Shown here: piece by piece, positions 9,309 through 51,665 of the stretch
Layout of the letters: each line of letters opens with the position of its first letter
How positions within the stretch are numbered: position 1 is the stretch's first letter
Assembly: GCA_030537465.1 (NCBI GenBank)
Contig: JAUNMP010000001.1
Coordinates: forward strand, 3,170-67,169
Direction: 5' to 3'
Source: a bacterium
GTDB taxonomy: Bacteria > Verrucomicrobiota > Kiritimatiellia > RFP12 > UBA1067
Length of the DNA stretch: 64,000 nt
Program-made: the position numbers and the translations under genes
The notes under the pieces: model-generated
Seen by the model: only the letters and a program-made list of their open reading frames with translations
Told to the model about the DNA's origin: nothing
The model's database searches: none

Positions 9309-9324
9309 TGGCACGGTCCTTGCT
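9309..9324 (+). promoter_or_regulatory. sigma-54 (RpoN) -24/-12 promoter upstream of the TRAP-eut operon
   Basis: TGGCACggtccTTGCT is an exact match to the TGGCAC-N5-TTGCW consensus. It sits 67 nt upstream of the dctP-like ATG (9391). DctP-type transporters are classically sigma-54/NtrC-family regulated. Confidence 0.5.
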
Positions 9325-9390
9325 AAAAGTGGTGCGTCGTTCAAGGGCGTCCGATGTGCGGAGGCCGAACGACACAAGGAGAAAGACAAG

Positions 9391-10497: not shown

Positions 10498-10511
10498 GAA
10501 GTGAGGAAATG

Positions 10512-10546
10512 AGGAACTAGGAAATGAGGGAGAATTCCTAGTTCCT
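10512..10546 (+). promoter_or_regulatory. Intercistronic stem-loop between dctP and dctQ (11-bp perfect stem)
   Basis: aggaactagga (10512-10522) pairs with tcctagttcct (10536-10546) across a 13-nt loop, followed by a second agttcct copy. Typical position for SBP/permease differential-expression hairpins. Confidence 0.4.
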
Positions 10547-10579
10547 AGTTCCTGGTTCCTTTTAAAAGGGGTTTTTGAT

Positions 10580-13155: not shown

Positions 13156-13163
13156 GGTGACCG

Positions 13164-15331: not shown

Positions 15332-15381
15332 GCGCCTGTCTTCCAATGTGGAGGGCATTTCCAAAAGATAGGCGCAGAGAC

Positions 15382-16869
15382 ATGAATCTTTCCAGACGTG
15401 GTTTCATTGGCGGTGCGGCGAGCTTTCTCGCGCTGTGCCAGGGGCGGGTTTTCGCTGCGAAACCGGGGGCCTTCACGGGTGGAACGCCGAGTTTGACATT
15501 TGGTGTTCTCTCGGACGTGCACATCTGCCTGGCGGCGGGTGGCAAGGCCCTCAAAAAGGGGTTCGAGACGGGTACCCTCGTGAAGGCCTTCGCCTGGTTC
15601 CGCGACAACGGCGCGGACGCTGTGGTGATTGCGGGCGACATGGCACATAGTGGCCTTGTCGGCGAACTGAAGGCTGTGGCAGATGCCTGGTTTCAGGTCT
15701 TCCCGGACGACAAGGCGCCGGACGGCCGCAAAGTCGAGCGGGTCTTCGTCTTCGGCAACCACGACTGGTCGAGTCCCGGACGTGCCAAGGAGGTCTTCCC
15801 CGACGAGGCCGAACGGAACGCGAATCTGCTCGTCAAGGATCCCCAGAAATGGTGGCAGGAGATCTTTCACGAACCGTGGACGCCGTTCTATCGGAAGACC
15901 GTGAAGGGGTATGACTTCATCGGCGCGCACTGGTGCAATGGCGGCTGCAACGGCAAGAAGGAAGTTTTCACCAAGGGAATGCGCGAATTCTACGCGGGGC
16001 AGAAATTCGATCCAGAGAAACCGTTCTTCCACATTCAGCATCCCCAGCCGAAGGGAACTGCCCATGGTGAAAACGTCTGGGGGCAAGACGACGGTGTGTC
16101 GACGGAGATTCTCTCCGCCCATCCGAACGCGGTGGCGTTTTCGGGGCACTCGCACACGTCGCTGACGGACGTCCGCAGCATCTGGCAGGGGGCGTTCACC
16201 AGCGTGGGCTGCGGGACGCTGCGTGATGTCAATCCGCTGCCGCCGTTGCCGCCTGGTACGACGACGTACGTGGGGGGCTGCGAGAACTACAAGTCGCCGA
16301 AGGGCGTGCCGGCCGAGAAGTTCGACGACCACAAGGCCCTGGCGATGATCGACAAGTACAATTGCCGTCAGGGACAGCTGGTCCGCGTCTATTCGGATCG
16401 CATGGTCTTCTCGCGGCGCGAGTTCGTGACGGGCGTTCAGCTGGGTCCGGACCTCGTGATGCCGCTGCCCGTCGGCGGCGAGAAGCCTTTCGCCTTCCCT
16501 GAGCGTCAGGCCAAGGCGAAACCGCCGGCCTTCCCGGCCGACGCGAAGCTCGCGGCGAAGAAGGTGATGGCCAAGCTGCGGCGCAAGAAGCCGAAGACGA
16601 AAGCCGAGTGCTGGGAGCTTGAATTCCCCGCGGCCAACGCCCAGAAGGGGGCGCGTCCGGCGCTCTACGAGATCAGCGCGCAGGGGGCGGACGGCAAGAC
16701 GTGCGCGTTCGGTCTGGCCTGCGAGGGATTTCGCTTCCCGCTCTCCGACAAGCGGGCGAAAAAGCCCCTCGTCTTCCGCGTCGACTGCAGCCGCGTGGCC
16801 GCGGAACCGATGTTCTCGGTTCGCGCCGTCTCCGCTTGGGGTAAATGGAGCGAACCGCTCAAGGCCTGA
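15382..16869 (+). CDS. TAT-exported metallophosphoesterase (calcineurin-like phosphoesterase)
   Basis: TAT signal MNLSRRGFIGGAASFLALCQG. Motifs GVLSDVHI, AGDMAHSG, GNHDW and GHSHT are present. It is paralogous (~45% identity) to the gene at 28289. Confidence 0.8.
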   Translation: MNLSRRGFIGGAASFLALCQGRVFAAKPGAFTGGTPSLTFGVLSDVHICLAAGGKALKKGFETGTLVKAFAWFRDNGADAVVIAGDMAHSGLVGELKAVADAWFQVFPDDKAPDGRKVERVFVFGNHDWSSPGRAKEVFPDEAERNANLLVKDPQKWWQEIFHEPWTPFYRKTVKGYDFIGAHWCNGGCNGKKEVFTKGMREFYAGQKFDPEKPFFHIQHPQPKGTAHGENVWGQDDGVSTEILSAHPNAVAFSGHSHTSLTDVRSIWQGAFTSVGCGTLRDVNPLPPLPPGTTTYVGGCENYKSPKGVPAEKFDDHKALAMIDKYNCRQGQLVRVYSDRMVFSRREFVTGVQLGPDLVMPLPVGGEKPFAFPERQAKAKPPAFPADAKLAAKKVMAKLRRKKPKTKAECWELEFPAANAQKGARPALYEISAQGADGKTCAFGLACEGFRFPLSDKRAKKPLVFRVDCSRVAAEPMFSVRAVSAWGKWSEPLKA

Positions 16870-16895
16870 TCTTCAAAGACAAAAGGAGTCAATCG

Positions 16896-17738
16896 ATGAA
16901 CAGACGTGAATTTCTCTTCAATTCCGCCACAGCCCTTGCGGCGATGGGGATGTCCGGATGTCTGTGCCCGCTCTGCGGCAAGACGAAGCATCCGATCGCA
17001 CTTCAGCTGTGGAGCATCAACAAAATCTTCTGGAAGACTCCCGAGAAGTGTCTGGCCGAGATCAAGGCGGCGGGATACGACGGGGTCGAGTTCGCCGGCT
17101 ATGACAAGCGCTCGGCCAGGGACCTGAGGAAGATGCTGGCGGATGCGGGACTTCGCGCCGCAGGCACGCACATTTCCGGCATGGCCAACTATCGGGGCGA
17201 CGGACTCAAGCGCAATCTCGACTTTTGCGCCGAAGCCGGCATCGAGGCGCTGGGCAACAGCTGGTTCGACGCGAACAAGAAGGAGGACTGGATCCGTTTC
17301 GGCGAGGAGATGAGCGAGGCGGCGGAAACCGCGGCCAAGTGGAACATCCCCGTGCAGATCCACAACCACGTGCAGGAGTTCAAGAAGACCTACGACGGCG
17401 TGCTGGCGTGGGATCTCATCTTCACGAAGGCTTCGCCGCGGCTCCTGCAGCAGATCGACACGAGCCAGGTGATCAACCCGGGCGGCGACATCGTCGCCAC
17501 GCTCAAAAAGTACCCGAACAGCCACTTCTCCATCCATATGAAGGAGAACGTGCCCTCGAAGGACGGCTATTTCGGCGTGGCACCGGATGACGGTGGCAAG
17601 ATCGTTCCATGGAAGGACACGGTCGACTACATCGAGACCGAGGCCGGCTTCAAGTGGTACATTGTCGAATGCGAACGCCGTCCCGACTCGCTCGAACCGG
17701 CCATCTACAATCTCAACTTCCTCAGGAAGCTCATCTAA
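16896..17738 (+). CDS. TAT-exported sugar phosphate isomerase/epimerase (xylose-isomerase-like TIM barrel)
   Basis: TAT signal MNRREFLFNSATALAAMGMSGC, then an AP-endonuclease-2/xylose-isomerase-like barrel (QLWSI, VEFAGYD, IHNHVQEF). Confidence 0.7.
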   Translation: MNRREFLFNSATALAAMGMSGCLCPLCGKTKHPIALQLWSINKIFWKTPEKCLAEIKAAGYDGVEFAGYDKRSARDLRKMLADAGLRAAGTHISGMANYRGDGLKRNLDFCAEAGIEALGNSWFDANKKEDWIRFGEEMSEAAETAAKWNIPVQIHNHVQEFKKTYDGVLAWDLIFTKASPRLLQQIDTSQVINPGGDIVATLKKYPNSHFSIHMKENVPSKDGYFGVAPDDGGKIVPWKDTVDYIETEAGFKWYIVECERRPDSLEPAIYNLNFLRKLI

Positions 17739-17756
17739 CAACAAAGGAAAAACAAA

Positions 17757-18719
17757 ATGAAGAAACTGATCTATCTCTCCGCCCTGGTCGCGCTGGTCGG
17801 TGGCGTCTCCGCCGCCGATGCGAAGAAGCCCGCCTGCACGTGCGAGAAGTGTCCATGCAAGCCCGCGTACGTCGTCTTTGAGGACACGACCGGACAGCGC
17901 GAATGGAAGATGCCGTTCCAGCTGGGTCTTGCTGGCTACACGATGAACAAGAAGAGCCTGGACGAGACCCTGGAGATCATGCAGTCGCTTGACCTGCACT
18001 TCCTCTGCGTCAAGGACTTCCATCTCAAGTACACGGCGACGGACGCCGAGATCGCCGCGTTCAAGGAGAAGTGCGCGAAGTACGGCGTGACGGGCTATGG
18101 TCTCGGACCGCTCTACACGAAGGACAACGCGGCCGTGCGCGCCTACTTTGAGTTCGCCAAGCGCTTCGGCACCAAAGTGATCGTCGGCGTGCCGTATGAC
18201 CCGACCGACGCGAAGGACAGCTGGGGCAAGCGCAAGGGCTCCCGCAAGCAGCTCGAGTACATCGACACGCTCGTGAAGGAATTCGACATCAAGTATGCGA
18301 TCCACAACCACGGCCCGAACTCGCCCGAGATGTTCCCGGACGTCGAGTACGGATACAACCTGATCAAGGATCTCGACAAACGCATCGGGTTCTGCATGGA
18401 CGTGGGTTGGGAGTTCGGTTGCGACCGCGATCCGGCCGAGACGATCCGCAAGTACGGCGACCGCATCTACGACATCCACCTCAAGAACTTCGCGGTCAAC
18501 GTCAAGGGCGCGCGCAAGATCGGCAAGAATAGCTTCACCACGGTCCCGATGCCGCGCGGCAAGCTCGACTATGCCTCGATCTTCAAGGCGCTCTCCGATG
18601 TCGGCTACAAGGGCGTCTGCTCGTTCGAGTACGAGCGCGACTTCACGAACAACCTGGGCGGCCTCGCCGAATCCGTCGGTTACGCGCGAGGAATCTGCGA
18701 CGCCGTGACGGCTAAGTAG
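17757..18719 (+). CDS. Secreted sugar phosphate isomerase/epimerase-like TIM barrel with a Cys-rich N-terminal motif
   Basis: Sec signal MKKLIYLSALVALVGGVSAA. CTCEKCPCK motif follows the signal. Barrel motifs AIHNHGPNS and MDVGWEF are present. Confidence 0.65.
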   Translation: MKKLIYLSALVALVGGVSAADAKKPACTCEKCPCKPAYVVFEDTTGQREWKMPFQLGLAGYTMNKKSLDETLEIMQSLDLHFLCVKDFHLKYTATDAEIAAFKEKCAKYGVTGYGLGPLYTKDNAAVRAYFEFAKRFGTKVIVGVPYDPTDAKDSWGKRKGSRKQLEYIDTLVKEFDIKYAIHNHGPNSPEMFPDVEYGYNLIKDLDKRIGFCMDVGWEFGCDRDPAETIRKYGDRIYDIHLKNFAVNVKGARKIGKNSFTTVPMPRGKLDYASIFKALSDVGYKGVCSFEYERDFTNNLGGLAESVGYARGICDAVTAK

Positions 18720-18726
18720 GCGACGC

Positions 18727-20136
18727 GTGGGTATGACGCTGAATCGCCGCGCATTCATGGGGACGCTCGCAGCCGCGGGCGCCGCCCCGTTCGCGTCCGC
18801 CGAGGGGAAACCTTCGGCGGCACCTCTTTCCGTGGGAACGGTGAACTTTGCCTCTGCGCTTCGCGTCGAGGCAGTCGTCGATGTGTTCGTCGCGGGCGGC
18901 GGTCCCGCGGGCATTTGCGCGGCCCTCGCCGCCGCGAGGTCTGGGAAGAAGGTCTATCTGGCCGAGGCGACGGGAGCCTTTGGCGGTGCGGCGACAGCGG
19001 CCTATGTACCGGCCTTCGCGCCGTTTGACGACGGCGTCCATCCCGTTGTGGGGGGGATTGGTCGCGAAATCCGCCAGCAGGTCTCGCAGGAGATTCCGAT
19101 CAATTCGTACTGGACGGCCATCGATCTCGAGGAACTCAAACGCGTCTACGACAGGATGATCACGGAGGCGGGCATCGGCTTCTCGTTCTTTACGTCGCTC
19201 GTGGCGGTGGAGGCGAAGGGGGGGCATGTCGACCATGTCGTGCTGGCAGGCAAGCGCGGCCTCTTCGCAGTGAAGGCGCGGATCTTCATCGACGCAACGG
19301 GTGACGCCGATCTGGTCGCCTTTGGCGGCGGAGCCTTCGAGATGGGCGACGAAGACGGCACGGTGATGCCGTGCACGCTTTGTACGCAATGGTGCGACAT
19401 CGACTTCTCGCAGAAGAATCCGCATCCCCAGTCGCTCCTGCCCAAGGCGATTGCGGACGGCGTCTTCTCCGTGCCCGATTTGCATCTGCCGGGGTTTTTC
19501 AAGGGCCCCTATAAGGATTCGTCGCTGGGGCGCGGCAACATCGGCCACGTCTTCAACGTCGATCCGACTGACGAGCGGTCGCTCACGCGTGCAATGGTCG
19601 ACGGTCGTCGGCGCATGCCGGAGTGGGGGCGATTCTACAAGGAATACCTCAAGGGCTACGAGAACATGCGCCTCGCTTCGACAGCGCCGCATCTCGGGGT
19701 GCGTGAAAGCCGGCGCGTGACCTGCGACTATACGCTGGGCGTGAAGGACTTTGTGGCGCGGGCGTCGTTTGCAGACGAAATCGGGCGCTACTGCTATCCA
19801 GTCGACGTCCACAACTCGAAGCCGGGCGACGCACAGGCGATGGCGGCATTTCTGAAGGAATACGAGAAAGACCTCAAATACAAGAAAGGCGAGAGCTACG
19901 GCATTCCCTATCGCTCGCTCATTCCGAAGAGCTTCTCGAACGTCCTCGTCGCCGGACGCTGCATGGGCGTCGACCGCAAGATGCAGGCCTCCATCCGCGT
20001 GATGCCGGGGGCCTTCATCACGGGGCAGGCCGTGGGGACGGCCGCCGCGCTGGCGGTCGGTTCGGACGATGTCCGCGCAGTCAAGAGCGACGACCTGCGT
20101 GCCGCGCTGCGCACGGCCGGGGCCTACATCGTCTAA
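18727..20136 (+). CDS. TAT-exported FAD-dependent oxidoreductase (FAD_oxidored family)
   Basis: TAT signal MTLNRRAFMGTLAAAGAAPFASA. Rossmann dinucleotide motif DVFVAGGGPAGICAALAAARSG. It belongs to the ~460-aa family commonly adjacent to glycan loci. Confidence 0.7.
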   Translation: MGMTLNRRAFMGTLAAAGAAPFASAEGKPSAAPLSVGTVNFASALRVEAVVDVFVAGGGPAGICAALAAARSGKKVYLAEATGAFGGAATAAYVPAFAPFDDGVHPVVGGIGREIRQQVSQEIPINSYWTAIDLEELKRVYDRMITEAGIGFSFFTSLVAVEAKGGHVDHVVLAGKRGLFAVKARIFIDATGDADLVAFGGGAFEMGDEDGTVMPCTLCTQWCDIDFSQKNPHPQSLLPKAIADGVFSVPDLHLPGFFKGPYKDSSLGRGNIGHVFNVDPTDERSLTRAMVDGRRRMPEWGRFYKEYLKGYENMRLASTAPHLGVRESRRVTCDYTLGVKDFVARASFADEIGRYCYPVDVHNSKPGDAQAMAAFLKEYEKDLKYKKGESYGIPYRSLIPKSFSNVLVAGRCMGVDRKMQASIRVMPGAFITGQAVGTAAALAVGSDDVRAVKSDDLRAALRTAGAYIV

Positions 20137-20156
20137 CAGTTGAAGGGGGGAGTTGT

Positions 20157-23100
20157 ATGAAACGAGTGGTATTGATTGCGGCGGCGTGTCTGTCGTTGGG
20201 CGTCTGGGCGGATGGTTGGCGTTTTGCAGATGGGACGTTGACCTATTCCAAGGATGGTTCGGATTCCTGGAAGATGGTACCATCCGTGAAGGGTACGACG
20301 GTGACCCTGACCTCGCTGGAATCGACGATTCCCGCGGACGGGGTGATCGATTTCGTCGGTGCGCTCGAGGCGTATGGCCTCACGGGGACGGGGTATTCGC
20401 TGGTCTTCGCCGAAGGGGAGGGACTTTCCGTTTTCGCTTCGGCTTTGGACGTGCGGCTGGCCGGCTGTCCGTGGCTGGGGCGGATGGACAAGGCTGCGGG
20501 CGCACCGTTCGCGGGCGTGACGAATCTGGTCGTCGGGACGCTGGGGACGGATCTGGATTTTGGTAGCGGCACGGGAAATACGCAGACCGTGCCGCTGGAA
20601 AACGCCGTGTTCAGTACGGCGGCGAATCTTGCGTCCGTGGAGATCTACGGTGGCAACCTCAAACTGGCGAATGCCTGTAGCGGATCCGGGAACTTGAGGA
20701 CCGTTCTCGTCCAGTCCTCCGGCACGTTGAACATGGGTTCCTGTTCGTTCAACTGCGGCACGAAGCGTCTGATGACGTCGGCGAAGGTCATCGCGGGTGG
20801 AGATCTGAATCTGGGGTCGCGGACGTTTCGGACGTCCCTTGCGACCGGGGCATCCGTGTATGTCGAAGCTCCGACCAAGGCATCCGTTGTGCTGGACGCG
20901 TTTCCGCTCTACGAAACGGAAACGAAATATTGGATCAACCTCTATTGGAACGCACCGGCGCCGAAGACCGTGAACACGAGCACGGATGCCTTTGTCGGCA
21001 ACACGATTGTCAATTGGTTCGTCTACAATACACCGGACGTGGTGGCGGCCTGGCCGAAGATGAACAAGACGTCCACGGTACAATCCGCGGCGAATTCCAG
21101 CATGTGGGTTCGACTTCCGGTCGATCCGACGGACTGCACGGGGGAGGGTTTTTGGCGGGTGCGTGGCACGGATGAGAATCCTTACCGTGGCAGTTCGTCC
21201 GGATGGGGCGGATATGGCGCATTGTACTGGTTCGACATGCGCACGGGAGATTGGTCCTATGCGGACGGCGTCCTGACCTCCGCGCATGGGTGGAAGCTCC
21301 GCCCGTCCTTCAGCGACACGACGGTGACATTGACGTCCGAGGCCTGCACACCGCCTGCGGATGGCGTCCTTGATCTCTCGGGTGCGCTTCAGTCGATGGG
21401 TTCGGCGGCGCCGGCACCCCTCGCTGACCTTTCCCTGGTTCTGACTGAAGGGGACGGACTGACGGTCTTCTCCCAGGTGAAGGTGTTCAAGGCCGCGCAC
21501 TGTCCATGGCTTGGAAAGATGGGGAAGGGAAGCGGCGCGCCGCTGACGAGCCTGGAGGCGTTTTCGGTGGGCATGCCGTTTCGGGATCTGGTCTTCGGCG
21601 ACAGCACGGCGAACACGGGGACGTTCGACACGCGTGCCAACAGTGTCTTCAGCGGAACCTCGACGCTTCGGGAGGGCACGATCCAGGGGCGCAACGTCTC
21701 GCTCAACAATGCCTGTTCGGGGCACAAGACGCTGAAGAGGATCTCCGTCCGCGCGACGGGTACGCTCGACACGGGCGTCTGCGCGTTCAACAGCGGGGGA
21801 TCGAACTTCAATCTCGAGAACGTCTCGTTCGTGGCGGGAGGCAACATCAAGATCGGCGGGCGGACGCTTCGCGCGTCGGTCGCCTCGAATGCGGTCGTCT
21901 ATGTCGAAGCGCCGGCTTCGGCGACGGTGACCCTGGATGAATGGGCGTTCTTCCAGTCCAATGAAAAGTCCCCATTCTCGCTTTATTGGAATGCAGCCGC
22001 GCCGCGTACGGTCGCGACGACGACGAAGCCGATGAACAACAAGACTGTGGCGACCTGGTACTTCTACAATACGCCGGAACTGGTGGCGACCTATCCGGCG
22101 ATGAGCGAGACGAGCAGCGTGCAGTCGGCGTCCAAGTCGTCCCTCTATCTGCGTCTGCCGGTCGATTCGTCTGATACGACGACGGAAGGTTTCTGGCGGA
22201 CGGGAAGCAACACGGATGCGAACCTGGTTCGGGGAGGCAACGAGACGGGATATGGCCCGGCCTATTGGCATGCGCCGTCTGCGATTTCTCCGGGAAATTG
22301 GACATATGCCCAGGGTGTGCTTAAGTTCGTTGACGGGGGCTCCGTGCAGTGGGAGATCGTCCCGTCGGTTTCGAAGAAGACGCTGACGCTGACGTCGAAG
22401 AACGGGACTGCGGCGGCGAACGGTGTTCTGGATCTTGCGGGGGCCGTCGAGGCGCTGAACCAGGGTGGCGTGGACGTGGTGCCGGGAACGGATTGGACGC
22501 TGGTCTTCAATGATGCGGGCGGGGCGTTCGCGAAGGTGAAGGATCTGTCGCTTTCGAACTGCCCGTGGCTCGGACGGATGGAAAAGCAGGCCGGCGCGGG
22601 CTTCTCCGCGCTGGAGCGGATTTCCGTGGGCATGCCGGATGTCGATCTGGTGTTCGGAAATGGCGCGTACAATGCCCAGAAGGTCGAGCCCTCGTACAGC
22701 GTATTCCCCGATTCGGCGAATCTGGGCGAGGTGACGATTCTGGGTGATCGGCTCGAGTTGGATGATGCCTTTGCGGGTCTGCCCAACATTTCAAACGTCT
22801 ACGTCAAGGCGACAAGATTGTTGAATCTGGGGAACTGTTCCTTCAACGACGGCGAAGCGCGCAAGTTGAAGCGGGTGTCGTTCATTTCGGGGGGTAACCT
22901 GAATATGGGCTGGCGGACGACGCGCAATGCGCTCGCGTCCGATGCCGTGATCTACGTCGAGGCGCCGGCGACGGCAACCGTGACGTTGCAGGAATACAGC
23001 TTCTACAATGGAACGGGGACGTCCTATCCTGTGTCAATGTACTGGAATGCGCCGAAACCCGTCATCGCGCAGAACTACGCCGCCGCCAGCATCATGCTGA

Positions 23101-26100
23101 CCTGGTATGTCTACAATACGCCGGAACTCGCCGCGACCTGGACGGGAATGGACGGCACGTTCCAGAACCTGGCGCGGGACTTCTACATGAAGCTACCGGC
23201 GGATTTCTCCGACACGACCACCGAGGGTGGCTGGGTTGTCGGCGATCCGGGAAATCCGGGGAATGCCTACAACAAGGGCTTCTACAAAGCCTTTTGGTAT
23301 GCGCCGACCGTCGGTGTGAACGGGTGGTCGGTCGATTTGGCGGGACAGACGCTCTCCCATACGAACGCTGCGGGACTGAGGGACTGGGAACTTGTCCCGA
23401 CAATCAGTGGAACGGCGTTGACGTTGTCGCCGAATGGCGTGGGTACGGAGGTCCTGGACCTCTGTGGCGCGATTGAGACGCTTGATTCGTCTTTGTCAGG
23501 GATGGTGTTGTCCTTTGATACGGGAACGGGCGCGTTTGCGAACGTGAAGGAGCTCTACATCACGAATGCTACGTGGTTGGCGAAGATGGTGCGTCAGTCC
23601 GGCGCGTCGTTCGGGGCTCTTGAAAAGTTCGTCGTGGATACGGATGGTAATGACCTTGTCTTCGGGGATGGCACGCAGAATGCGTTGAACGTGGCGCGGT
23701 CGTACAGCGTGTTCAGCGAAAGTACGGTGCTGGCGGATGCGACGATCTGCGGCGGCAACGTCAAACTGGGCAATGCGTGTTCGGGCCATACGACGTTGAC
23801 GCAGGTCTGCGTGCGGGCAACGGGAACGCTGGACATGGGGTACTGCTCGTTCAACTGCGGCGAGAAGGTGTACAACATCCAGAATGCGTCCGTGATTGCG
23901 GGCGGGGATCTCAAGATGGGCACGCGAACCTTCCGTACGTCTTTTGCCGCAAACGCCAGTCTGTACGTCGAGGCACCTCCGACGGCGACGGTGACCCTTC
24001 AGAATTGGACGTTCTATCAGTCGAATCTCTCCTGTCCCGTCAAGATGTACTGGAATGCTCCGGCACCGAAGACGGATCACGCCCAGGTGATGAATGGCAG
24101 TACGGATGTCCACTGGTATGTCTACAACACGCCCGAAATCGTCGACGCATGGCCGACGATGGACGGTACGACCTTCCAGCGGATGTCCGATGGGGCGACT
24201 CTGATGATCAGACTTCCGGCCGATTGCGAAAACCAGTCCGAAGAGGGGGTCTGGTGCAACGACGGCAATCAAAACAATGCCTCGCTTCGCCGTGACAGCA
24301 ACGACTGGGGGTGGGGACCTGCCTATTGGTACAATCCGCTGCCGACGACGGAAGACTGGACCTACGACGCGGAGAACGGTCTCGTCTTCGTCCGCAATGG
24401 CGTCGCCCGCTGGCGCTTCACGCCGGCTCTTGAGGGGGCGAAGCTGACGCTCACCTCGCAGGCGGGATCGAACGTGCCGATGGACGGTCGTCTCGACCTC
24501 GCGGGAGCGCTGGAGAAGTTCGGTGGTGCGCTCGCGGGTTGTTCGATTCGCTTTGTTGAGGGCGACGGTGCGGCTGTGCTTTCGCAGGTCCGTGAGCTCT
24601 ACCTGACGAACTGCACGTGGTTGACGCATCTCGACGCCAGTGACGGCGCGGTCTTTACGGCTCTCGAGAAGCTCGTCGTGGGAACAGAAGGGCAGGATCT
24701 GGTCTTTGGCAGCGGCGCGGCGAATTCGAAAGACGCGGATGCGACGACGAGCGTCTTTCCCGGTGCGGCGGCGACACTGCGCGATGTGGTGGTGTTCGGT
24801 GGAAACGTCCAGCTGAAGAACGCCTTTGTCGGCGCCGGTGCGTTGACGCAGGCCGTTGTGAAGGCGACGGGCACGTTGGACACGGGAACCTGCTCGTTCT
24901 CCTTGCCGAACATGACGTTGAAGCGTGCCGAGCTCCGCGCGGGCGGAAACCTGACGATGGGCGACCGGACGTTCCGGACGGCCTTCGCCAAGAACGGGAA
25001 GCTGTATGTCAGCGCGCCGACCAACGCCGTCGTGACGTTGAATGCCTATCCGCTTCATCAGCGTGCCCTCTCCAAGCCGATCAGCGTGTATTGGAGCGCA
25101 CCGCCGCCGACGGGAACGAGTCAGGCTTCGTGGTCCTATCTGGACATGACCTGGTACGTGGACGCTGCCTATGCGCCGTGCTTCCCGCCGATGGGCGGTG
25201 CCGCAGTGACGAACCAGCTGAACGGTGGTTCGATCCGTCTGTCGCTGCCGGCGAATCCGAAGAACACGACGACGGCGGGATTCTGGCGTTGCGACAATGG
25301 CACGGGGGCGCCGGCCAACGGCGACAACGACCACGGGTGCGGCGCGGCCTACTGGTGCAATCGCTGGGAGGTCGAGGGACGGCCGTGCCGCTTCCTCTCG
25401 ATCGGCAACAGCTTCTCGCAGCAGATGTTCTCCTCGAGTTATAAGTTTGCGGCTTCGGCGAAACTGCTGGGACATCCGCTTGACGCGGTGGGATTGGTGA
25501 AGGGCGGCTGCTCGCTCCTGACGCATTGGAACATGCGGGCTGACAAGGGAACCTACACGCTTTACAAGGACTTCACCTCGAAGGAGAATCCTCTTGCCGG
25601 TCTGTCAGGAACGGATGTCTGTCTCACGGACGTTCTGGCGGCCGTGGACTGGGATGTCATCGTGATCCAGCAGGTCTCGACCGATTCGCCGAATCCGGAA
25701 ACCTACGAACCCTACATGGGCAATCTGGTTGCCCTATTCAGAGAGTTGGCGCCAAACGCCGAGCTCCGTTTCCAGCAGACCTGGGCCTATGACCGCGACT
25801 GTGCCATCAACTCCTCCTTCAAGTTCGGCGGCGACGTGGCGAAGCGCGATGCGATGTATGACAACATCCGCGATACAGTGGCGGAGGTCTGTGAACGCTA
25901 TGGCATGGGAATCATTCCGACGGGCTACGCCATTCAGCTCTATCGCTACGGACTTCCTGTCCGGACTGCCGCGCAGGACTTCTGCAGCGCCGACCACCGC
26001 CATATGAGCAATGGACAGGGCGGCAACTACCTCCAGATGCTGACCTGGTGCATGGCCGCCTTCGGCGAGATGCCGACGAAGACGCAGATTGCGCCGCCGA

Positions 26101-26444
26101 CGACGCCGACGGGCTTCGATGCCGATCTCGCCTGGATCTGTGCATCCAACGCCGTGATGTCCGTCGACCATCGCGACTATGGCCAGGGGACGGTCGACTT
26201 CAGCTACGACGTGACCTTCAAGGGACTCAAGGGCGAAGATCTGATGGTGCAGTCCGTGACGAACGGCGCCTTCGCCCTGCCGCCGGAAGGGAAGGCCTAC
26301 GGCCTGCGCATCACGGGATGGACGACGGAGGATGGGAGCGTGACCAATACGCCCGCCCAGATCCAAACGACGCCGGTCTATGACTGGCGAACCTGGTATC
26401 CCGTCGGAGGGGTGATTCCCGGCACGATGATTCTCTTCCAATAG
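20157..26444 (+). CDS. Giant secreted protein (2095 aa): five tandem ~345-aa repeats of an uncharacterised Cys/Trp-rich module plus a C-terminal DUF4886/SGNH-like esterase domain
   Basis: RBS AAGGGGGG precedes the ATG; signal MKRVVLIAAACLSLGVWA. Five repeats share the ordered motifs TLTS ... CPWLGRM ... NACSG ... CSFNCG ... GGDLNLGSRTFRTS ... YVEAP ... LYWNAPAPKT ... WYVYNTPE ... TEGFWR. The C-terminal FLSIGNSFS motif is DUF4886/SGNH-like. Confidence 0.8.
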   Translation: MKRVVLIAAACLSLGVWADGWRFADGTLTYSKDGSDSWKMVPSVKGTTVTLTSLESTIPADGVIDFVGALEAYGLTGTGYSLVFAEGEGLSVFASALDVRLAGCPWLGRMDKAAGAPFAGVTNLVVGTLGTDLDFGSGTGNTQTVPLENAVFSTAANLASVEIYGGNLKLANACSGSGNLRTVLVQSSGTLNMGSCSFNCGTKRLMTSAKVIAGGDLNLGSRTFRTSLATGASVYVEAPTKASVVLDAFPLYETETKYWINLYWNAPAPKTVNTSTDAFVGNTIVNWFVYNTPDVVAAWPKMNKTSTVQSAANSSMWVRLPVDPTDCTGEGFWRVRGTDENPYRGSSSGWGGYGALYWFDMRTGDWSYADGVLTSAHGWKLRPSFSDTTVTLTSEACTPPADGVLDLSGALQSMGSAAPAPLADLSLVLTEGDGLTVFSQVKVFKAAHCPWLGKMGKGSGAPLTSLEAFSVGMPFRDLVFGDSTANTGTFDTRANSVFSGTSTLREGTIQGRNVSLNNACSGHKTLKRISVRATGTLDTGVCAFNSGGSNFNLENVSFVAGGNIKIGGRTLRASVASNAVVYVEAPASATVTLDEWAFFQSNEKSPFSLYWNAAAPRTVATTTKPMNNKTVATWYFYNTPELVATYPAMSETSSVQSASKSSLYLRLPVDSSDTTTEGFWRTGSNTDANLVRGGNETGYGPAYWHAPSAISPGNWTYAQGVLKFVDGGSVQWEIVPSVSKKTLTLTSKNGTAAANGVLDLAGAVEALNQGGVDVVPGTDWTLVFNDAGGAFAKVKDLSLSNCPWLGRMEKQAGAGFSALERISVGMPDVDLVFGNGAYNAQKVEPSYSVFPDSANLGEVTILGDRLELDDAFAGLPNISNVYVKATRLLNLGNCSFNDGEARKLKRVSFISGGNLNMGWRTTRNALASDAVIYVEAPATATVTLQEYSFYNGTGTSYPVSMYWNAPKPVIAQNYAAASIMLTWYVYNTPELAATWTGMDGTFQNLARDFYMKLPADFSDTTTEGGWVVGDPGNPGNAYNKGFYKAFWYAPTVGVNGWSVDLAGQTLSHTNAAGLRDWELVPTISGTALTLSPNGVGTEVLDLCGAIETLDSSLSGMVLSFDTGTGAFANVKELYITNATWLAKMVRQSGASFGALEKFVVDTDGNDLVFGDGTQNALNVARSYSVFSESTVLADATICGGNVKLGNACSGHTTLTQVCVRATGTLDMGYCSFNCGEKVYNIQNASVIAGGDLKMGTRTFRTSFAANASLYVEAPPTATVTLQNWTFYQSNLSCPVKMYWNAPAPKTDHAQVMNGSTDVHWYVYNTPEIVDAWPTMDGTTFQRMSDGATLMIRLPADCENQSEEGVWCNDGNQNNASLRRDSNDWGWGPAYWYNPLPTTEDWTYDAENGLVFVRNGVARWRFTPALEGAKLTLTSQAGSNVPMDGRLDLAGALEKFGGALAGCSIRFVEGDGAAVLSQVRELYLTNCTWLTHLDASDGAVFTALEKLVVGTEGQDLVFGSGAANSKDADATTSVFPGAAATLRDVVVFGGNVQLKNAFVGAGALTQAVVKATGTLDTGTCSFSLPNMTLKRAELRAGGNLTMGDRTFRTAFAKNGKLYVSAPTNAVVTLNAYPLHQRALSKPISVYWSAPPPTGTSQASWSYLDMTWYVDAAYAPCFPPMGGAAVTNQLNGGSIRLSLPANPKNTTTAGFWRCDNGTGAPANGDNDHGCGAAYWCNRWEVEGRPCRFLSIGNSFSQQMFSSSYKFAASAKLLGHPLDAVGLVKGGCSLLTHWNMRADKGTYTLYKDFTSKENPLAGLSGTDVCLTDVLAAVDWDVIVIQQVSTDSPNPETYEPYMGNLVALFRELAPNAELRFQQTWAYDRDCAINSSFKFGGDVAKRDAMYDNIRDTVAEVCERYGMGIIPTGYAIQLYRYGLPVRTAAQDFCSADHRHMSNGQGGNYLQMLTWCMAAFGEMPTKTQIAPPTTPTGFDADLAWICASNAVMSVDHRDYGQGTVDFSYDVTFKGLKGEDLMVQSVTNGAFALPPEGKAYGLRITGWTTEDGSVTNTPAQIQTTPVYDWRTWYPVGGVIPGTMILFQ
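20211..25370 (+). repeat. Five in-frame tandem coding repeats (period about 1030-1045 bp) inside the giant ORF
   Basis: Repeat starts at about 20211, 21247, 22293, 23320 and 24351 (the D/W-x-Y-A-x-G-x-L motif). The repeats are ~40% identical at protein level, indicating ancient duplication rather than recent slippage. Confidence 0.7.
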
Positions 26445-26455
26445 CGTAGCCTTTT

Positions 26456-28279
26456 ATGAAGATTCATCGTCAGATTGTTTGCTGGCTGGTGGTTTCCGCG
26501 GTCTCGGCGACAGCTGAGACAATTGACGTAAAGTTCAACTACGGGGGACCTCGGGGAAAGCCGAAGATTGAATCGCGCAAGGTTGAACTGAAGCCTCTGG
26601 AAACGGGCGGCTGGCGTTATACGCTGCCGTCCACGGAGATTCCGGAACGGGCCCTCTCCGTGGAGGCGACTGTCCCCGCGCTGCTTTCGGCGCAGAAGGG
26701 CGAGGATGGATTCTGGGTGCTGCCGGATGGACGATATGGCGCGTTCAATCAGGAGAACGGCGTGTGTCTGGAGCGTCCGCGGCGGTCCATTCTGCCATTT
26801 GCCGGCTTCAAGTCGCCTCGGGGCTGCTGGATGGTCATCGTTCGAGGGCTCCGTCTGGAGTGCGACTTCGGCGTGACGGCGACGAATGGACTCTACCGGA
26901 TGTCCGTCTTTCTGCGGACGGGGGAACTGGATCGTCCTGCCTACGAGGGCGGCGTCATCGACATTCTGCCGATGCCGACGGATGCGACCTATGTCGATTT
27001 GGCGAAACGCTACCGCGACGAACAGCTGGCGGCCGGCGTGGTGCGTCCGCTCGCCGATCGGGCGAAGGAGCGTCCCGAACTCGCCTACACGGCCGAGTCG
27101 ATTTTCGTGCGCGTCAAGCACGGATGGAAGGCGCTCAACACCGACCACGAGCAGAAAGCGAAATGGGAGCACCAGACGCCGTCGAACCAGCCGCCGATCC
27201 ACTGCGCGATTTCGTTCGACCGGTTCAAGGACATCATGCGCCGGATGAAGGAGCAGGGTATCGACAAGGCCGAGGTCTGCTCGGTTGGCGGGACGGCGGG
27301 CGGCTTCGACGGACAGTTCCCCGACGTGCTGCCGATTCCTGAAGAGTTTGGCGGCGAACGGAAATTACGCGAGGCCGTCGCCTACGGGAAGTCGCTCGGT
27401 TACCAGGTGGTCACGCATTTCGCGACCACGGCGATGTTCGAGTGCTCGAAGGAGTGGAATCCCGACTTCATCTGCCACACGAAGTCGGGTGAACTGCTGA
27501 AGAGCGGCATTGTCGCGGGCGGACGGACGCATCGGCTGTGTCCGCGCGTCTATCTCGATCACTTCATCAAGCGTGACTGGGCGACGTTCCGCGATCTCGG
27601 CTTCCGCGGTACGCACCACATCGACGTGATTTCCTGCATCCCGCCGTATGCGTGCTTCAATCCGAAGCATCCGCTCACCCGCCGCGAGAGCGCCGACTGC
27701 ATGCGGGAAATCGGTCGCTATTCTCAGCAGACGTTTGGCGGTTTTGGCTCCGAGGCGAGTTTCGACTGGATGGCGCCGTCTCTCGATTTCGCGCTCTACG
27801 TCAGCTGGTATCCCGGGTCCAAGAACGCCGAGGCGACGTCCCTCGTCGATCGCGTCGTGCCGCTTTGGCAGATCGTCTACCACGGCATCATCGTGTCGAA
27901 CCCGTTCTACGCGACGATCGACGCCTACATTGATCGCGCGGCGGGGAAGAAGGGCCTTTCGGATGATCCGTTCGGACGCTTCAGCTATCTCGGGAGCGCG
28001 GCGAACCGGATTCTCAAGGTCCACGAGTTCGGTGGCCGTCCGGTCTTCTACTACACGCTCTACGAGGACGTTGCGCCGCTCAAGCGTGCCTATGACGACT
28101 ATCGGCGCTTGTCGCATCTCCAGTATGCGTTCATGGAGGACCATCGTGAGCTTGCGAGAGATGTTTTCCTGACCCGCTACTCTACGGGAGAGGAGACGGT
28201 CGCGAACTATTCTGAAAGGCCATTCGCCTGGCGAGGACGGAGTGTGGCCTCGAAGCAGTTTGAACTTTTCACGAAATGA
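26456..28279 (+). CDS. Secreted hypothetical protein (607 aa), possibly a glycan-active enzyme
   Basis: Signal MKIHRQIVCWLVVSAVSATA. No recognisable catalytic family. Aromatic-rich, with codon usage consistent with coding and an 11-bp gap to the upstream gene. Confidence 0.5.
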   Translation: MKIHRQIVCWLVVSAVSATAETIDVKFNYGGPRGKPKIESRKVELKPLETGGWRYTLPSTEIPERALSVEATVPALLSAQKGEDGFWVLPDGRYGAFNQENGVCLERPRRSILPFAGFKSPRGCWMVIVRGLRLECDFGVTATNGLYRMSVFLRTGELDRPAYEGGVIDILPMPTDATYVDLAKRYRDEQLAAGVVRPLADRAKERPELAYTAESIFVRVKHGWKALNTDHEQKAKWEHQTPSNQPPIHCAISFDRFKDIMRRMKEQGIDKAEVCSVGGTAGGFDGQFPDVLPIPEEFGGERKLREAVAYGKSLGYQVVTHFATTAMFECSKEWNPDFICHTKSGELLKSGIVAGGRTHRLCPRVYLDHFIKRDWATFRDLGFRGTHHIDVISCIPPYACFNPKHPLTRRESADCMREIGRYSQQTFGGFGSEASFDWMAPSLDFALYVSWYPGSKNAEATSLVDRVVPLWQIVYHGIIVSNPFYATIDAYIDRAAGKKGLSDDPFGRFSYLGSAANRILKVHEFGGRPVFYYTLYEDVAPLKRAYDDYRRLSHLQYAFMEDHRELARDVFLTRYSTGEETVANYSERPFAWRGRSVASKQFELFTK

Positions 28280-28288
28280 GGATATACC

Positions 28289-29734
28289 ATGACGACGAGA
28301 CGACAGTTTCTTGACCGGGCGCTGGCCCTGGCGGCGTTGACGGGCGTTCCCGCGAAGATGTGGGGCGCCGCGGAGGCTCTAGGCGAGCCGGATCTGCGCA
28401 TTGGCGTGTTGAGCGACATCCACCTGAGCCATGAACACGATGTCCGTTCAAAGACAAGCCCGACAAAGGAGATGTTCATCCACGCGCTTGAGTATTTCCG
28501 CGATCGGAAGGTCCATGGCGTGCTCGTCTGCGGAGACCTTGCGAATGCCGGTCTGGTCGACGAGCTGGAGATGGTGTCGGACGCCTGGTTCAAGGTCTTC
28601 CCGGACGGGAAACTTCCCGATGGCACGCCCGTGGCCAACCTCATGCACTATGGCGACCACGATACGGAAAGGCGGTTCTACAGGAAGGATCGTTTCGAGC
28701 CGATGTACGCGAAGAAGGGGCTTCCGATCCCCGAAAGCCTGAGCGAGGGCGAGAACCGGAAGATCTATTGGGAGAAATACTTCAAGGAGCCCTGGTCGCC
28801 CATCCGCCACGTGAAGGTGCGGGGGTATGATTTCGTGCTGGGGAACTTCATGCGGGAGTGTCCGGGGACGACGCCGGGCCTCGCGGACTTCCTGGCGAAG
28901 CTGAACCCCGATCCGAAGAAGCCGTTTTTCTACAGCCAGCACCGCTGGATCTGCGGAACCTATCTCGCGGACGAGGAGATGTGGGGCGGGGACAGCGGCA
29001 AGAACGGTCCCGTGCTCATGAAGTTCCCGAACGCCGTGGCGTTCACGGGGCACACCCACTACATGCTGACGGACGATCGGATCGTCTGGCAGGACGGCTA
29101 CACGCAGATCAACGCTGGATCCCTGCTCAACGCCCCCTGCGGACGTCAGCGGGAGAACGGCATCGACATCTCGTGGTATAAGAACGACTATATGCGCGAC
29201 ACGCAGATGAAGTCTCTGAACGCGCACCAGGGGCACCATGGTATGGTGTTCAGCCTGAAGGGAGACTCCGCGGTCATCGAACGTCGTGATTTCGGCTGCG
29301 ATCTCCCGGTGGGGCCCGATCTCGTGTTTTCGCTTTCGTCCAAATCCCATACTCGTGCAAACTGCGAGCCGGCGAGCGTCGCGCCCGAATTTCCGCAGGG
29401 GGGGGCTGTGTCCGCCGTGGCCCGAGCGGGAAAGAACCGCAAGGGAGAGGCCGTCGACCAGATCGTCGTGACGTTCCCCGTGGCGGCACCGACGAAGGAC
29501 ACGCCGCGCGCGCTCGACTACGAAGTCCGAGCCGAGAAGGCGGATGGTACGTTGCTGAAGGCTAAACGCGTCTATTCACCGGGGATCAATCTGCCGCCGG
29601 AGAAGGACGCAGCCAAGGCGGTCTGTGTCTTCGCCAGATCCGAAGTCGGGGCCGGTCCCGTGCGCTTCGTGGTCCATCCCGCGAACTGCTGGCGCAAGGC
29701 CGGAAAGCCGATCTCGGTTGCTTTTGAAGGTTGA
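28289..29734 (+). CDS. TAT-exported metallophosphoesterase (paralog of 15382..16869)
   Basis: TAT signal MTTRRQFLDRALALAALTG. Motifs GVLSDIHL, CGDLANAG, GDHD and GHTHY. Confidence 0.75.
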   Translation: MTTRRQFLDRALALAALTGVPAKMWGAAEALGEPDLRIGVLSDIHLSHEHDVRSKTSPTKEMFIHALEYFRDRKVHGVLVCGDLANAGLVDELEMVSDAWFKVFPDGKLPDGTPVANLMHYGDHDTERRFYRKDRFEPMYAKKGLPIPESLSEGENRKIYWEKYFKEPWSPIRHVKVRGYDFVLGNFMRECPGTTPGLADFLAKLNPDPKKPFFYSQHRWICGTYLADEEMWGGDSGKNGPVLMKFPNAVAFTGHTHYMLTDDRIVWQDGYTQINAGSLLNAPCGRQRENGIDISWYKNDYMRDTQMKSLNAHQGHHGMVFSLKGDSAVIERRDFGCDLPVGPDLVFSLSSKSHTRANCEPASVAPEFPQGGAVSAVARAGKNRKGEAVDQIVVTFPVAAPTKDTPRALDYEVRAEKADGTLLKAKRVYSPGINLPPEKDAAKAVCVFARSEVGAGPVRFVVHPANCWRKAGKPISVAFEG

Positions 29735-29741
29735 GGAAAGG

Positions 29742-31943
29742 ATGACGACGATGAAGAGCGTGGCTGCATTGGGGCTTTGTGGATGTCTGGCTCTTGCCTG
29801 CCTGGCGGACGAGCGTCCGATTGGCGTGTTCGATTCGGGACTGGGTGGTCTGACCGTGCTCGAGCGCTTGCTGGATTGTGACCGCGTCAACAATGAAACG
29901 GGAGCTCCGGGAGCGGATGGCATTCCGGATTTCGCGCACGAGCGATTCGTCTATCTCGGCGACCAGGCGAACATGCCCTATGGCGATTACGCGGCCGAGA
30001 AGAAGAGCGACCTCCTGAAGGAGCTGATCGTCGACGACGCAAAATTTCTGTTGGGGACGTCGTTCCACCGCTCGGCCCAGGAGAAGGTGCCGACGGGGAA
30101 GAAGGACCGCGCGAAGATTCTCGTCATCGCCTGCAACACGGCGACGGCGTGGGGGCTTGAGGAGGTTCGGAACCGTCTCAAGGCCGCGGGCGACGACACC
30201 CAGGTCGTGGGGGTGATCGAGGCTGGCGTGCGGGCGACGCTGGACTTGCTGAAGGCGGACAAGGCCAGCCCGTCCTTCGCAGTTGGCGTGCTTGCGACGC
30301 CGGGCACGATCGCTTCGGGAGCCTATACGAAGACGCTGAGGATCGAACTGGCCGCCCGTGGCATCGACTGCGAGGTGCCCGTCTACGGGCAGGGCTGTGC
30401 GGGTTTGGCCGACGCGGTCGAGGCCTGTTCTCCGACGGCTGACCAGATCGCCGTCGACAACCTCCGGAAGATGCTGGAGCAGCACCGCGCATCAGGAGCG
30501 AAGGCACCGCTGCGCGCGGTCATTCTCGGCTGTACGCATTTCCCGTTCGTTCAGTCCGCCCTCGAGAAGGCATTGGCCGAAGAGCGTGCGAAGGGCGCGA
30601 ACATCGCTGCCGATTGCTGCTTCGTCGATCCGGCCATCTACACGGCCGCGGAGTGCTATCGTCTGCTGAAGAAGAACGGACTGCTGGCGAAGACCCTGCA
30701 GCCGGCTCCGTCCGCGGCCTTCCTTTCCGTGGCCAATCCCGATCTGGCGAAGGAGCATCTCATGGACGACGGACAGCTGACGCGCGCCTTCAAGTACGGC
30801 CGCTCGATCGACGGGCGCGTCGGCACGACCAAGCCGATTCCGTTTACGCACGCCAATTTCAAGCCCGAGGTCTTCGCGCAGGTCGGCCGTCTGCTACCGC
30901 GCACGGCGGCGTTGCTTGAGGCCGTTCCGTCGTTCACCATGCGGATTGACGACAATCACTCTCCGGCCGAGTGGAAGCGCGTCGCGGAGATCTTTGAAAG
31001 CCGCGGCATGCGCGTCTCCTTTGCCATCGTACCCAGTTCGCTTTCGGATGCGCAGGGGGCCTGCTTGAAGGAACTTTCCGACCGCGGACATGTCATTATG
31101 GACCATACGCCGAACCATACGTTCTATCGGGCGACGTATCATGACATTGAGGCTTTCAACTCCGCCAAGACAAAACCGTTTGTCCTGGAAGTGGACGAAA
31201 AGGGCAAAATTCTCTTCTTCAGACCCACGGTTGACGACGCCCACCCGCAAAACTGCCGCGTCAAGGCGAAGATCGAGAAGAACGTCCTCACGTTCACCGA
31301 TGCGAAAGCCCCCAAGCGCACCTACTACACGTTCATCAAAATTCCGGGGCGTTCGGAGGTTTTCGGATTGGCCAGTCGGAACGGCGTGTATGATCTGCGT
31401 GACTTCTGGCGTCGACCGTTGAAGGAGCAGATTGATTTGGCCAAGACGGAGGTTCTGCTCTACGACCAGGCGGCAATTCAGCCCTGTGACGACATCCTCC
31501 GCGAACTCGCGCGTGTCTCGCGCGAACGCTTCGCCCACTTCAATTTGCCGTTGCCCACCATCTGGGTGCGTCCCGGCGGCTGGGATCCAGGTGTGCAATG
31601 GGAACGGCTGGAACGGATCTATGGACGCGAGTTCGGCTACATCGGCGCGGATTCCAGCGTCGGTGGCGTCTGGGGCGGCAGCCGCTGGACGACGGGCTAC
31701 GACGCGATGTACTTCTTCGACCAGGGGGCGGACATCACTCCCGAACAGCTAGTCGACCAGATCGAGAAGCGCCTCGCGGCCGGCAAGTACCATGTGACGC
31801 TTTCGCACATGTGGAACAACAAGCTTCCGGGACGGATGGATGAATACTATCAGAAGACCGAGCGCTTTGCCCAATTGCTGGTTGATCGAAAAATCCCGTT
31901 CCTGACGATGAAGGGAACGCTGGATGCACGATTTGGGAAGTAA
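29742..31943 (+). CDS. Exported fusion protein: MurI-like glutamate racemase (Asp/Glu racemase) domain + NodB-like polysaccharide deacetylase (CE4) domain
   Basis: Signal MTTMKSVAALGLCGCLALACLA. All three MurI blocks are present: IGVFDSGLGGLTV, LVIACNTATA, ILGCTHFPF. The C-terminal half has RIDDNH and DHTPNHT, which match the NodB motifs (TFDD / HxxxH). Confidence 0.65.
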   Translation: MTTMKSVAALGLCGCLALACLADERPIGVFDSGLGGLTVLERLLDCDRVNNETGAPGADGIPDFAHERFVYLGDQANMPYGDYAAEKKSDLLKELIVDDAKFLLGTSFHRSAQEKVPTGKKDRAKILVIACNTATAWGLEEVRNRLKAAGDDTQVVGVIEAGVRATLDLLKADKASPSFAVGVLATPGTIASGAYTKTLRIELAARGIDCEVPVYGQGCAGLADAVEACSPTADQIAVDNLRKMLEQHRASGAKAPLRAVILGCTHFPFVQSALEKALAEERAKGANIAADCCFVDPAIYTAAECYRLLKKNGLLAKTLQPAPSAAFLSVANPDLAKEHLMDDGQLTRAFKYGRSIDGRVGTTKPIPFTHANFKPEVFAQVGRLLPRTAALLEAVPSFTMRIDDNHSPAEWKRVAEIFESRGMRVSFAIVPSSLSDAQGACLKELSDRGHVIMDHTPNHTFYRATYHDIEAFNSAKTKPFVLEVDEKGKILFFRPTVDDAHPQNCRVKAKIEKNVLTFTDAKAPKRTYYTFIKIPGRSEVFGLASRNGVYDLRDFWRRPLKEQIDLAKTEVLLYDQAAIQPCDDILRELARVSRERFAHFNLPLPTIWVRPGGWDPGVQWERLERIYGREFGYIGADSSVGGVWGGSRWTTGYDAMYFFDQGADITPEQLVDQIEKRLAAGKYHVTLSHMWNNKLPGRMDEYYQKTERFAQLLVDRKIPFLTMKGTLDARFGK

Positions 31944-31997
31944 GGGGATTGGGAACCCAAAAACAGGAACTAGGAATTGGGAGAAAGGACGATTTTC

Positions 31998-34201: not shown

Positions 34202-34259
34202 TTGGGGTTGTGGAAATGTCCGGGCCGGATGCAGACCCGTGTGTATGGAGGATTTTTCG

Positions 34260-50223: not shown

Positions 50224-50227
50224 GACG

Positions 50228-51640: not shown

Positions 51641-51665
51641 CGCGCCGACGTGGAGGTCTGCAAAT

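Follow-up and report, generated by a model that had tools for sequence, protein, structure and literature searches.

The window analysed here comprises 64,000 nucleotides from a bacterium of the Kiritimatiellia (assembly GCA_030537465.1, contig JAUNMP010000001.1, positions 3,170 to 67,169 of the forward strand), and the longest open reading frame (ORF) of the region under study encodes a protein of 2095 residues in which a signal peptide, five tandem modules, a DUF4886 domain, a small beta domain and, at the C-terminus, a short hydrophobic tail follow one another. Based on the available evidence, it is fairly likely that this protein is a surface-displayed esterase and that its five modules, predicted to be solenoids, form an extended ligand-binding or stalk array. 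As far as sequence searches reach, the module constitutes a new sequence family, and the architecture is annotated in NCBI merely as "DUF4886 domain-containing protein". The features of the gene and its product are given below in window coordinates.

20157..26444, + strand: whole gene, 2095 codons plus stop, within a long same-strand gene run
20142..20152, + strand: Shine-Dalgarno-like GAAGGGGGGAG, 4 nt before the ATG, read from the sequence
20157..20210, + strand: putative Sec-type signal peptide MKRVVLIAAACLSLGVWA (aa 1-18), from sequence features and homolog alignment
20211..21245, + strand: module R1 (aa 19-363), from alignment and a single-module structure model
21246..22292, + strand: module R2 (aa 364-712), from alignment and a two-module structure model
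22293..23318, + strand: module R3 (aa 713-1054), from alignment
23319..24350, + strand: module R4 (aa 1055-1398), from alignment
24351..25376, + strand: module R5 (aa 1399-1740), esterase-proximal subtype with YVSAP, WYVDAAYA and AGFWRC
25392..26105, + strand: DUF4886 domain (PF16227, SGNH hydrolase clan; aa 1746-1983)
25401-25418, + strand: block I motif IGNSFS (aa 1749-1754)
25503-25517, + strand: block II motif GGCSL (aa 1783-1787)
25992-26003, + strand: block V motif DHRH, D-x-x-H (aa 1946-1949)
26193..26405, + strand: small beta domain (aa 2013-2083; VDFSYDVTF...GW...WYPV)
26418..26441, + strand: C-terminal tail PGTMILFQ-COOH, of a type shared by proteins of the module family

The reading frame is uninterrupted and lies 20 nt behind the preceding gene, whose stop codon is at 20134-20136, and 11 nt ahead of the following one; promoter and terminator scans around it gave background-level signals only. 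Inspected by eye, the first residues of the protein (MKRVVLIAAACLSLGVWA|DGW) are arranged as in a Sec signal peptide, with a charged part, a hydrophobic part and an A-x-A motif. The predicted cleavage site is placed just ahead of the conserved DGW that opens the first module, and in the aligned homologs the modules likewise begin directly behind an A-x-A-like site. A lipoprotein signal built on the Cys at position 11 (IAAAC) was considered in place of Sec-type cleavage; however, the lipobox of the protein is poor, the homolog P0003 has no Cys at that position, and the module begins immediately behind the A-x-A-like site. The secreted protein of 2095 residues proposed in an earlier note on this DNA is thus borne out by the ORF with its Shine-Dalgarno site and, as judged by eye, by its signal-peptide-like N-terminus.

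With boundaries cut at the conserved G/D-W start, the five modules align end to end with pairwise identities of 36.6-45.4%, and their motifs recur with a period of 336-353 residues. Even the least similar pair, R1 and R5, is matched by BLASTP with E=3e-68 over 337 residues, and the repeat is therefore far beyond chance. This agrees with the five tandem copies of about 345 residues and about 40% identity that the earlier note had described; its ordered set of motifs holds as a consensus in the order given, although most of the motifs are exact in only one to four of the five copies. The description of the repeats as Cys/Trp-rich did not survive comparison with the other proteins of the window, since Cys makes up 1.57% of the repeats vs 1.63% of those proteins and Trp 2.85% vs 2.35%; the residues truly enriched in the repeats are Thr, Asn, Ser and Gly. 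Nor does each copy carry four or more conserved Cys: the counts from R1 to R5 are 5, 4, 2, 9 and 7, with one invariant Cys column among the five copies and none across the wider family.

The array is old and is kept by selection, as is evident from positional orthologs, from the grouping of the copies and from low ratios of nonsynonymous to synonymous substitution (dN/dS). The protein P0001, from another sample, is a colinear ortholog of 2092 residues, 73% identical, in which all five repeats are retained and their order is unchanged. When 21 module copies were placed in a tree, each repeat of the window paired with the repeat at the same position in P0001 (63-81% identity, R5 being the best-conserved copy with 81%), and the esterase-proximal modules of the five-repeat proteins and of the four-repeat protein P0002 fell into a single clade. 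For the window gene compared with that of P0001, dN/dS by the Nei-Gojobori method is 0.16-0.23 per repeat and 0.12 for the esterase, ratios that are approximate as dS is near saturation; every module copy is under purifying selection. The stable architecture claimed at the outset, as opposed to a recent duplication, is upheld by these observations.

No named sequence family was found for the module, in accordance with the earlier note. Pfam returned DUF4886 as the only significant match of the whole protein, leaving the modules unmatched, and gave no match at E<=10 for single repeats, for the two most divergent homologs or for the family consensus, and NCBIfam gave no family match to the whole protein, the repeats, these homologs or the consensus. 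A single repeat and the family profile, each searched against PDB sequences, produced CFTR, MRP2 and a reovirus protein, all at chance level, and these were discarded. The family is extremely rare. When 1.84 billion representative proteins were searched exhaustively with an HMMER profile, 10 reached E<=0.001. Two of the 10 carry names, both as NCBI entries from metagenome-assembled genomes: P0002 and the window protein, the latter labelled "bacterium" and nothing more. Among 185,579 species-representative genomes a single locus was found, in a Kiritimatiellia genome assembled from horse faeces (P0002, MCQ2389971.1), and a scan of JGI metagenomes gave one short contig with the module. Most members are metagenomic contigs, and Kiritimatiellia, from P0002, is the sole taxonomic label in the family. 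The copy number among homologs ranges from one to five, with the following arrangements.

Window protein and P0001: five module copies, then DUF4886
P0002: four module copies and DUF4886
P0011: two module copies, then DUF4886, then one copy
P0003: signal peptide, two module copies and tail, with no recognised enzyme domain
P0004: one module copy inside a protein with glycoside hydrolase (GH) family domains GH43 and GH97_N and a GH141-like beta-helix
P0005 and P0006: one module copy with Y_phosphatase3, a tyrosine-phosphatase-family domain

Over 16 diverse copies the invariant positions are occupied by Gly, Trp, Leu, Val, Pro and Ala only, with no invariant Asp, Glu, His or Lys. Three Trp residues (W3, W315 and W340) are invariant, and two more (W246 and W269) almost invariant.

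The fold of the module was predicted with AlphaFold2 (AF2). The model of R1, computed from the five-repeat alignment, reached a mean predicted local distance difference test (pLDDT) of 83.5 and a predicted template modelling score (pTM) of 0.87; the two-module model, based on eight in-register, non-overlapping pairs, reached a pLDDT of 87.2 and a pTM of 0.71, with an equal order of elements in both halves. According to their DSSP strings, the predicted module starts with a four-stranded beta-meander (about aa 1-47) plus one short helix, and about 12 strands follow at a spacing of 16-37 residues (mean about 25), a solenoid signature from which the module is read as a solenoid. In this the models agree with a right-handed solenoid of short coils and parallel beta-sheet, and the module is predicted to be a right-handed beta-solenoid of about 12 irregular coils resembling leucine-rich repeats (LRR), both the coil count and the choice of LRR over a three-sided helix having been read from DSSP strings only. 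Among structural neighbours the scores were 12.1 for the LRR domain of the thyroid-stimulating hormone (TSH) receptor, 11.9 for that of the follicle-stimulating hormone (FSH) receptor, 12.2 for HMW1 and 11.8 for EtpA, so that beta-helices of the two-partner secretion (TPS) type score nearly equal to the receptor LRRs. Foldseek found nothing significant in the PDB (best match TpLRR, E=0.034) or in BFVD; the weak matches in both were mostly LRR or FNIP-repeat proteins.

Membership of the module in the LRR_5 family (PF13306) was examined and rejected at the sequence level. No hidden Markov model (HMM) of LRR_5 or of the LRR clan matched the whole protein, the repeats, the two divergent homologs or the consensus at E<=10, and an HMM of the LRR_5 unit, built from 25 units of 4fs7, 4gt6, 4h09 and 6mlx, gave no positive score in 20 of the 21 modules and scored no better on them than on shuffled sequences. 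A 23-residue LRR_5 consensus retrieved LRR_5 structures with E down to 2.6e-88 and is thus a valid probe. When the family profile was aligned by hhalign with LRR_5 sequences from the PDB, P was 0.003-0.11, always at module positions 134-173, and self-alignment with hhalign gave a weak two-coil signal of internal repetition that was non-significant (P about 0.05). On present evidence the modelled fold would fall in the LRR-like right-handed solenoid class and the module would behave as an LRR solenoid. A confident assignment to an existing family, which the earlier note named as refuting its reading, did not emerge from the sequence; the fold class, LRR/beta-solenoid, is however a known one, and this lowers the novelty of the module.

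The C-terminal DUF4886/SGNH domain recognised beforehand was confirmed by Pfam (E=1.5e-31; 109.7 bits vs a gathering cut-off of 26.7 bits) and by similarity to PDB 4i8i (E=2.8e-11). GNSFS, GGCSL and D-x-x-H are conserved in the window protein, P0001, P0002 and P0011 as well as in 4i8i; an equivalent of the block III Asn was not identified in the domain. With the Ser, the Gly and the Asp-x-x-His intact, the catalytic end looks competent. DUF4886 is a family of the SGNH clan with no member of known activity (PMC9487903), and a review of SGNH enzymes was all that a literature search on DUF4886 and on Kiritimatiellia sorting signals returned.

Altogether, the protein may be viewed as a multi-modular esterase of the SGNH type that a gut bacterium of the Kiritimatiellia secretes and probably keeps at its cell surface. 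The modules are most likely non-catalytic and of an accessory binding or stalk type, because they have no conserved acid, base or His, their catalytic partners are unrelated and each copy is under purifying selection; such promiscuity of partners together with multiplicity is seen in carbohydrate-binding modules (CBMs), Ig-like domains and LRRs. If stacked end to end, the five modules would extend over about 25-30 nm as an elongated and semi-rigid array that could bind a polymeric ligand or a surface by avidity and/or space the esterase from the cell, by analogy with BspA-type LRR surface proteins and tandem CBMs. If the tail marks the cell-proximal end, the esterase would lie near the envelope and the modules would point outward as a capture arm. 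The esterase would remove acyl groups from a complex glycan that neighbouring exported enzymes could degrade further. The context of export and glycan processing is supported by the signal peptide and by neighbours that include proteins with twin-arginine translocation (Tat) signals, DUF5696, a glycerophosphodiester phosphodiesterase with a BNR propeller (GDPD-BNR), GH2 and a CBM-bearing protein.

Several points weigh against this interpretation. As DUF4886 has no characterised member (PMC9487903), we infer the activity of a glycan O-deacylase from the SGNH clan and the neighbourhood, and with ethanolamine ammonia-lyase (EutBC) and glycerophosphodiesterase genes nearby a lipid or phospho-head-group ester is a possible substrate. 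Ligand binding by the modules and the localisation of the protein are likewise putative, and the role given to the tail is a guess. The alignments behind the AF2 models were shallow, with 5 and 8 sequences, the models were read as DSSP strings, and the two-module pTM of 0.71 suggests, without proving, a fixed geometry between modules.

It is possible, if rather unlikely, that each module is a new carbohydrate-binding solenoid and that the five copies bind a polysaccharide substrate and feed it to the esterase. The co-occurrence of the module with GH43, GH97_N and a GH141-like beta-helix in P0004, the wealth of glycan-related genes at the locus, the several conserved Trp and a tandem multiplicity typical of CBM avidity speak for this proposal. 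However, the module matches none of the CBM-containing Pfam families, the Trp may be mere core residues, and protein binding is the usual role of the closest neighbours in structure, BspA/TpLRR and receptor LRRs; the fusions to a tyrosine-phosphatase-family domain in P0005 and P0006 and the enzyme-less P0003 do not point to a single glycan substrate either. A role as inert spacers, setting the distance between envelope and catalytic domain without a specific ligand, appears improbable. Conservation confined almost entirely to fold-determining Gly, Trp, Leu and Pro, paralogous copies only 37-45% identical, the variable copy number and a fairly high two-module pTM, compatible with a rod, would all suit a spacer; on the other hand, P0003, with its signal peptide, two modules and tail only, would be hard to explain, the purifying selection on every copy is nearly as strong as that on the esterase, and a solenoid of 345 residues is costly compared with the usual Ig, FN3 or PT-linker.

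There is very little to recommend the modules as catalytic beta-helices, be they polysaccharide lyases, glycosidases or epimerases, a view in which the protein would unite several enzymes: no acidic, basic or His residue is invariant across the family, and neither Beta_helix (PF13229) nor Pectate_lyase nor any GH family of Pfam matched, the consensus included, so that membership in the pectate-lyase-like catalytic beta-helices was rejected both by HMM and by catalytic residues. The chance that the array arose in assembly or was duplicated only very recently is as good as nil, since its copies share only short DNA stretches of 60-84% identity, which short-read assembly would be unable to collapse or inflate, the identical protein occurs in independent assemblies (NCBI entry MDO5316999.1, "MAG: DUF4886 domain-containing protein [bacterium]", and contigs of two SRA runs in Logan), the repeats group by position and not by protein, the 73%-identical ortholog has all five copies in order and dN/dS is well under 1; the doubt about the assembly raised in the earlier note is settled by the same observations.

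Behind the DUF4886 domain of this putative surface esterase, the small beta domain resembles the Listeria-Bacteroides repeat (Flg_new, PF09479). Flg_new is absent from the Pfam matches of the window protein itself and appears in the aligned region of two homologs, P0011 (21.8 bits, E=2e-4) and P0002 (17.7 bits, E=3.9e-3), with scores below the cut-off of 27 bits. The tail that ends the protein has counterparts in P0001 (PGTMILIQ), P0002 (GGGTLLMLH), P0003 (SGGLILIFR), P0011 (RGSLFLVR) and a protein of locus L006 (PGTVVSFR), and can be described as Gly, then Thr, Ser or Gly, then four or five mostly hydrophobic residues and a final Gln, Arg or His, or as G-[TSG]-x-hydrophobic(3-4)-[QRH]-COOH. 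An unrelated protein with the autotransporter-associated beta-strand repeat (PATR, PF12951), at 56-949 and running into the start of the window, ends in RGTNIILR and is the only independent observation of the tail. Among 284 ORF ends the pattern, which was written after the tails had been seen, would be expected 0.04 times. The tail sites other than that of the window protein are listed below.

Window, 923-946: end of the PATR protein
L003, 15179-15202: same C-terminal pattern
L006, 537-560: same C-terminal pattern
L007, 6688-6711: same C-terminal pattern

The tail may serve Kiritimatiellia as a signal, so far unnamed, for sorting, surface anchoring or docking. The known C-terminal sorting signals (PEP-CTERM, LPXTG and the C-terminal domain of the type IX secretion system) were rejected, with neither a model match nor a defining motif: the NCBIfam sorting-signal models matched neither the whole protein nor its last 355 residues, and the tail lacks a PEP or LPXTG motif, its mostly hydrophobic stretch being just 4-5 residues long. 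In giant secreted proteins near module-bearing relatives (L005, 5650-20726; L004, 174-6941) another motif recurs near the C-terminus, in the forms GFFRVGVNVTK, AFYRLHVKAS..., GFFILKSKPAK, EFFRVFVTDDL and NFYMIIVQ, perhaps a further kind of conserved signal or beta-strand at the ends of proteins in these organisms.

The gene for the modular protein lies in a tight run of same-strand genes that includes a tripartite ATP-independent periplasmic (TRAP) transporter, EutBC, enzymes with Tat-like signals (two metallophosphoesterases and one FAD oxidoreductase), DUF5696, GDPD-BNR and GH2. The neighbouring features in the window are the following.

9229-15312: TRAP transporter (DctP; DctQ fused to DUF805; DctM), then ethanolamine ammonia-lyase EutB/EutC
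15346-20136: Tat-signal metallophosphoesterase, two xylose-isomerase-like TIM-barrel proteins and a Tat-signal FAD_oxidored protein (PF12831), directly upstream of the target gene
26456-28279: DUF5696 protein of 607 residues with a signal peptide
31977-33938: fusion of a glycerophosphodiester phosphodiesterase with a BNR/sialidase-like beta-propeller, from the same run of genes
34239-36338: signal-peptide protein of 699 residues without Pfam match
41309-44029: signal-peptide protein of 906 residues without Pfam match
50141-52499: GFO/IDH/MocA oxidoreductase beside another AP_endonuc_2 protein

The enzymes at 15346-20136 and 50141-52499 are, in combination, reminiscent of the oxidative (3-keto-glycoside) route of glycan cleavage. 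The DUF5696 protein and the two signal-peptide proteins of 699 and 906 residues are candidates for uncharacterised glycan-active enzymes. Ethanolamine- or glycerophospho-substituted substrates are hinted at by the TRAP, EutBC and GDPD-BNR genes. Elsewhere in the window, an exported protein of 1189 residues (55099-58668) combines HZS_alpha, the middle domain of hydrazine synthase alpha, with a C-terminal FGE-sulfatase domain, which is an unusual pairing. An ORF of 772 residues (29625-31943) is glutamate-racemase-like at about aa 60-370 only, its C-terminal 400 or so residues being without family match; translation from its GTG would begin 110 nt inside the preceding gene, and the true start is thus probably further downstream.

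Kiritimatiellia are abundant, almost uncultured glycan degraders of herbivore guts. In this lineage-restricted family a solenoid module of 345 residues is reused on an esterase, a GH43 protein and a protein with a phosphatase-family domain. Binding of glycan by the module would make it a new CBM-like family, and a sorting function of the tail would turn it into a marker of the group's surface proteome. For work on DUF4886, too, the protein offers an experimental handle. The more ambitious proposal, that the module founds a new ligand-binding family of LRR-like solenoids (possibly CBMs) displayed through a short and hitherto undescribed C-terminal signal shared with unrelated PATR surface proteins, and hence a lineage-specific system of enzyme and adhesin presentation, is at this stage speculative and unlikely to hold in full. 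Unnamed families of solenoid-fold domains are common in metagenomes, and nothing here contradicts current understanding.

Among known systems, the BspA/TpLRR proteins (PF13306; 4h09, 4fdw, 4fs7, 6mlx and PcpA 4cp6), which anaerobic bacteria of the gut and mouth secrete as surface proteins, have a coil length of about 23-25 residues similar to that of the module, and the local pattern VF..a..L..V.I.G..v.L.NAF.G...L..V.V of the module recalls the LRR_5 unit. In contrast to the tandem units of about 23 residues of LRR_5, with their consensus L..I.IP..V..IG..AF..C, the coils of the module are irregular (16-37 residues); it is a fixed unit of 345 residues that begins with a beta-meander of its own and has Trp in its C-terminal part, and it was duplicated as a whole and not as single LRRs. 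The right-handed beta-helices of the TPS type and others (HMW1 2odl, EtpA 8cpk, FHA 1rwr and HxuA 4i84) share no sequence similarity with the module and have three strands per coil, whereas DSSP assigns about two to the module; TPS domains are N-terminal secretion domains of two-partner-secretion exoproteins, and neither a TpsB partner nor a TPS motif was seen here. The DUF4886 structure 4i8i is a chain of 271 residues, while the DUF4886 domain of the window protein sits behind 1722 residues of repeats and before the beta domain and tail. The design, one catalytic domain with accessory copies, is shared with multi-modular carbohydrate-active enzymes carrying CBM, Ig-like, FN3 or Listeria-Bacteroides repeats, in which copy number also varies and the same module is found on enzymes of different activity; the module described here, at about 345 residues, is far larger than the usual accessory modules and is in no catalogued Pfam family. 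Both the fold class and the design principle are therefore familiar, and it is the sequence family of the module that is new.

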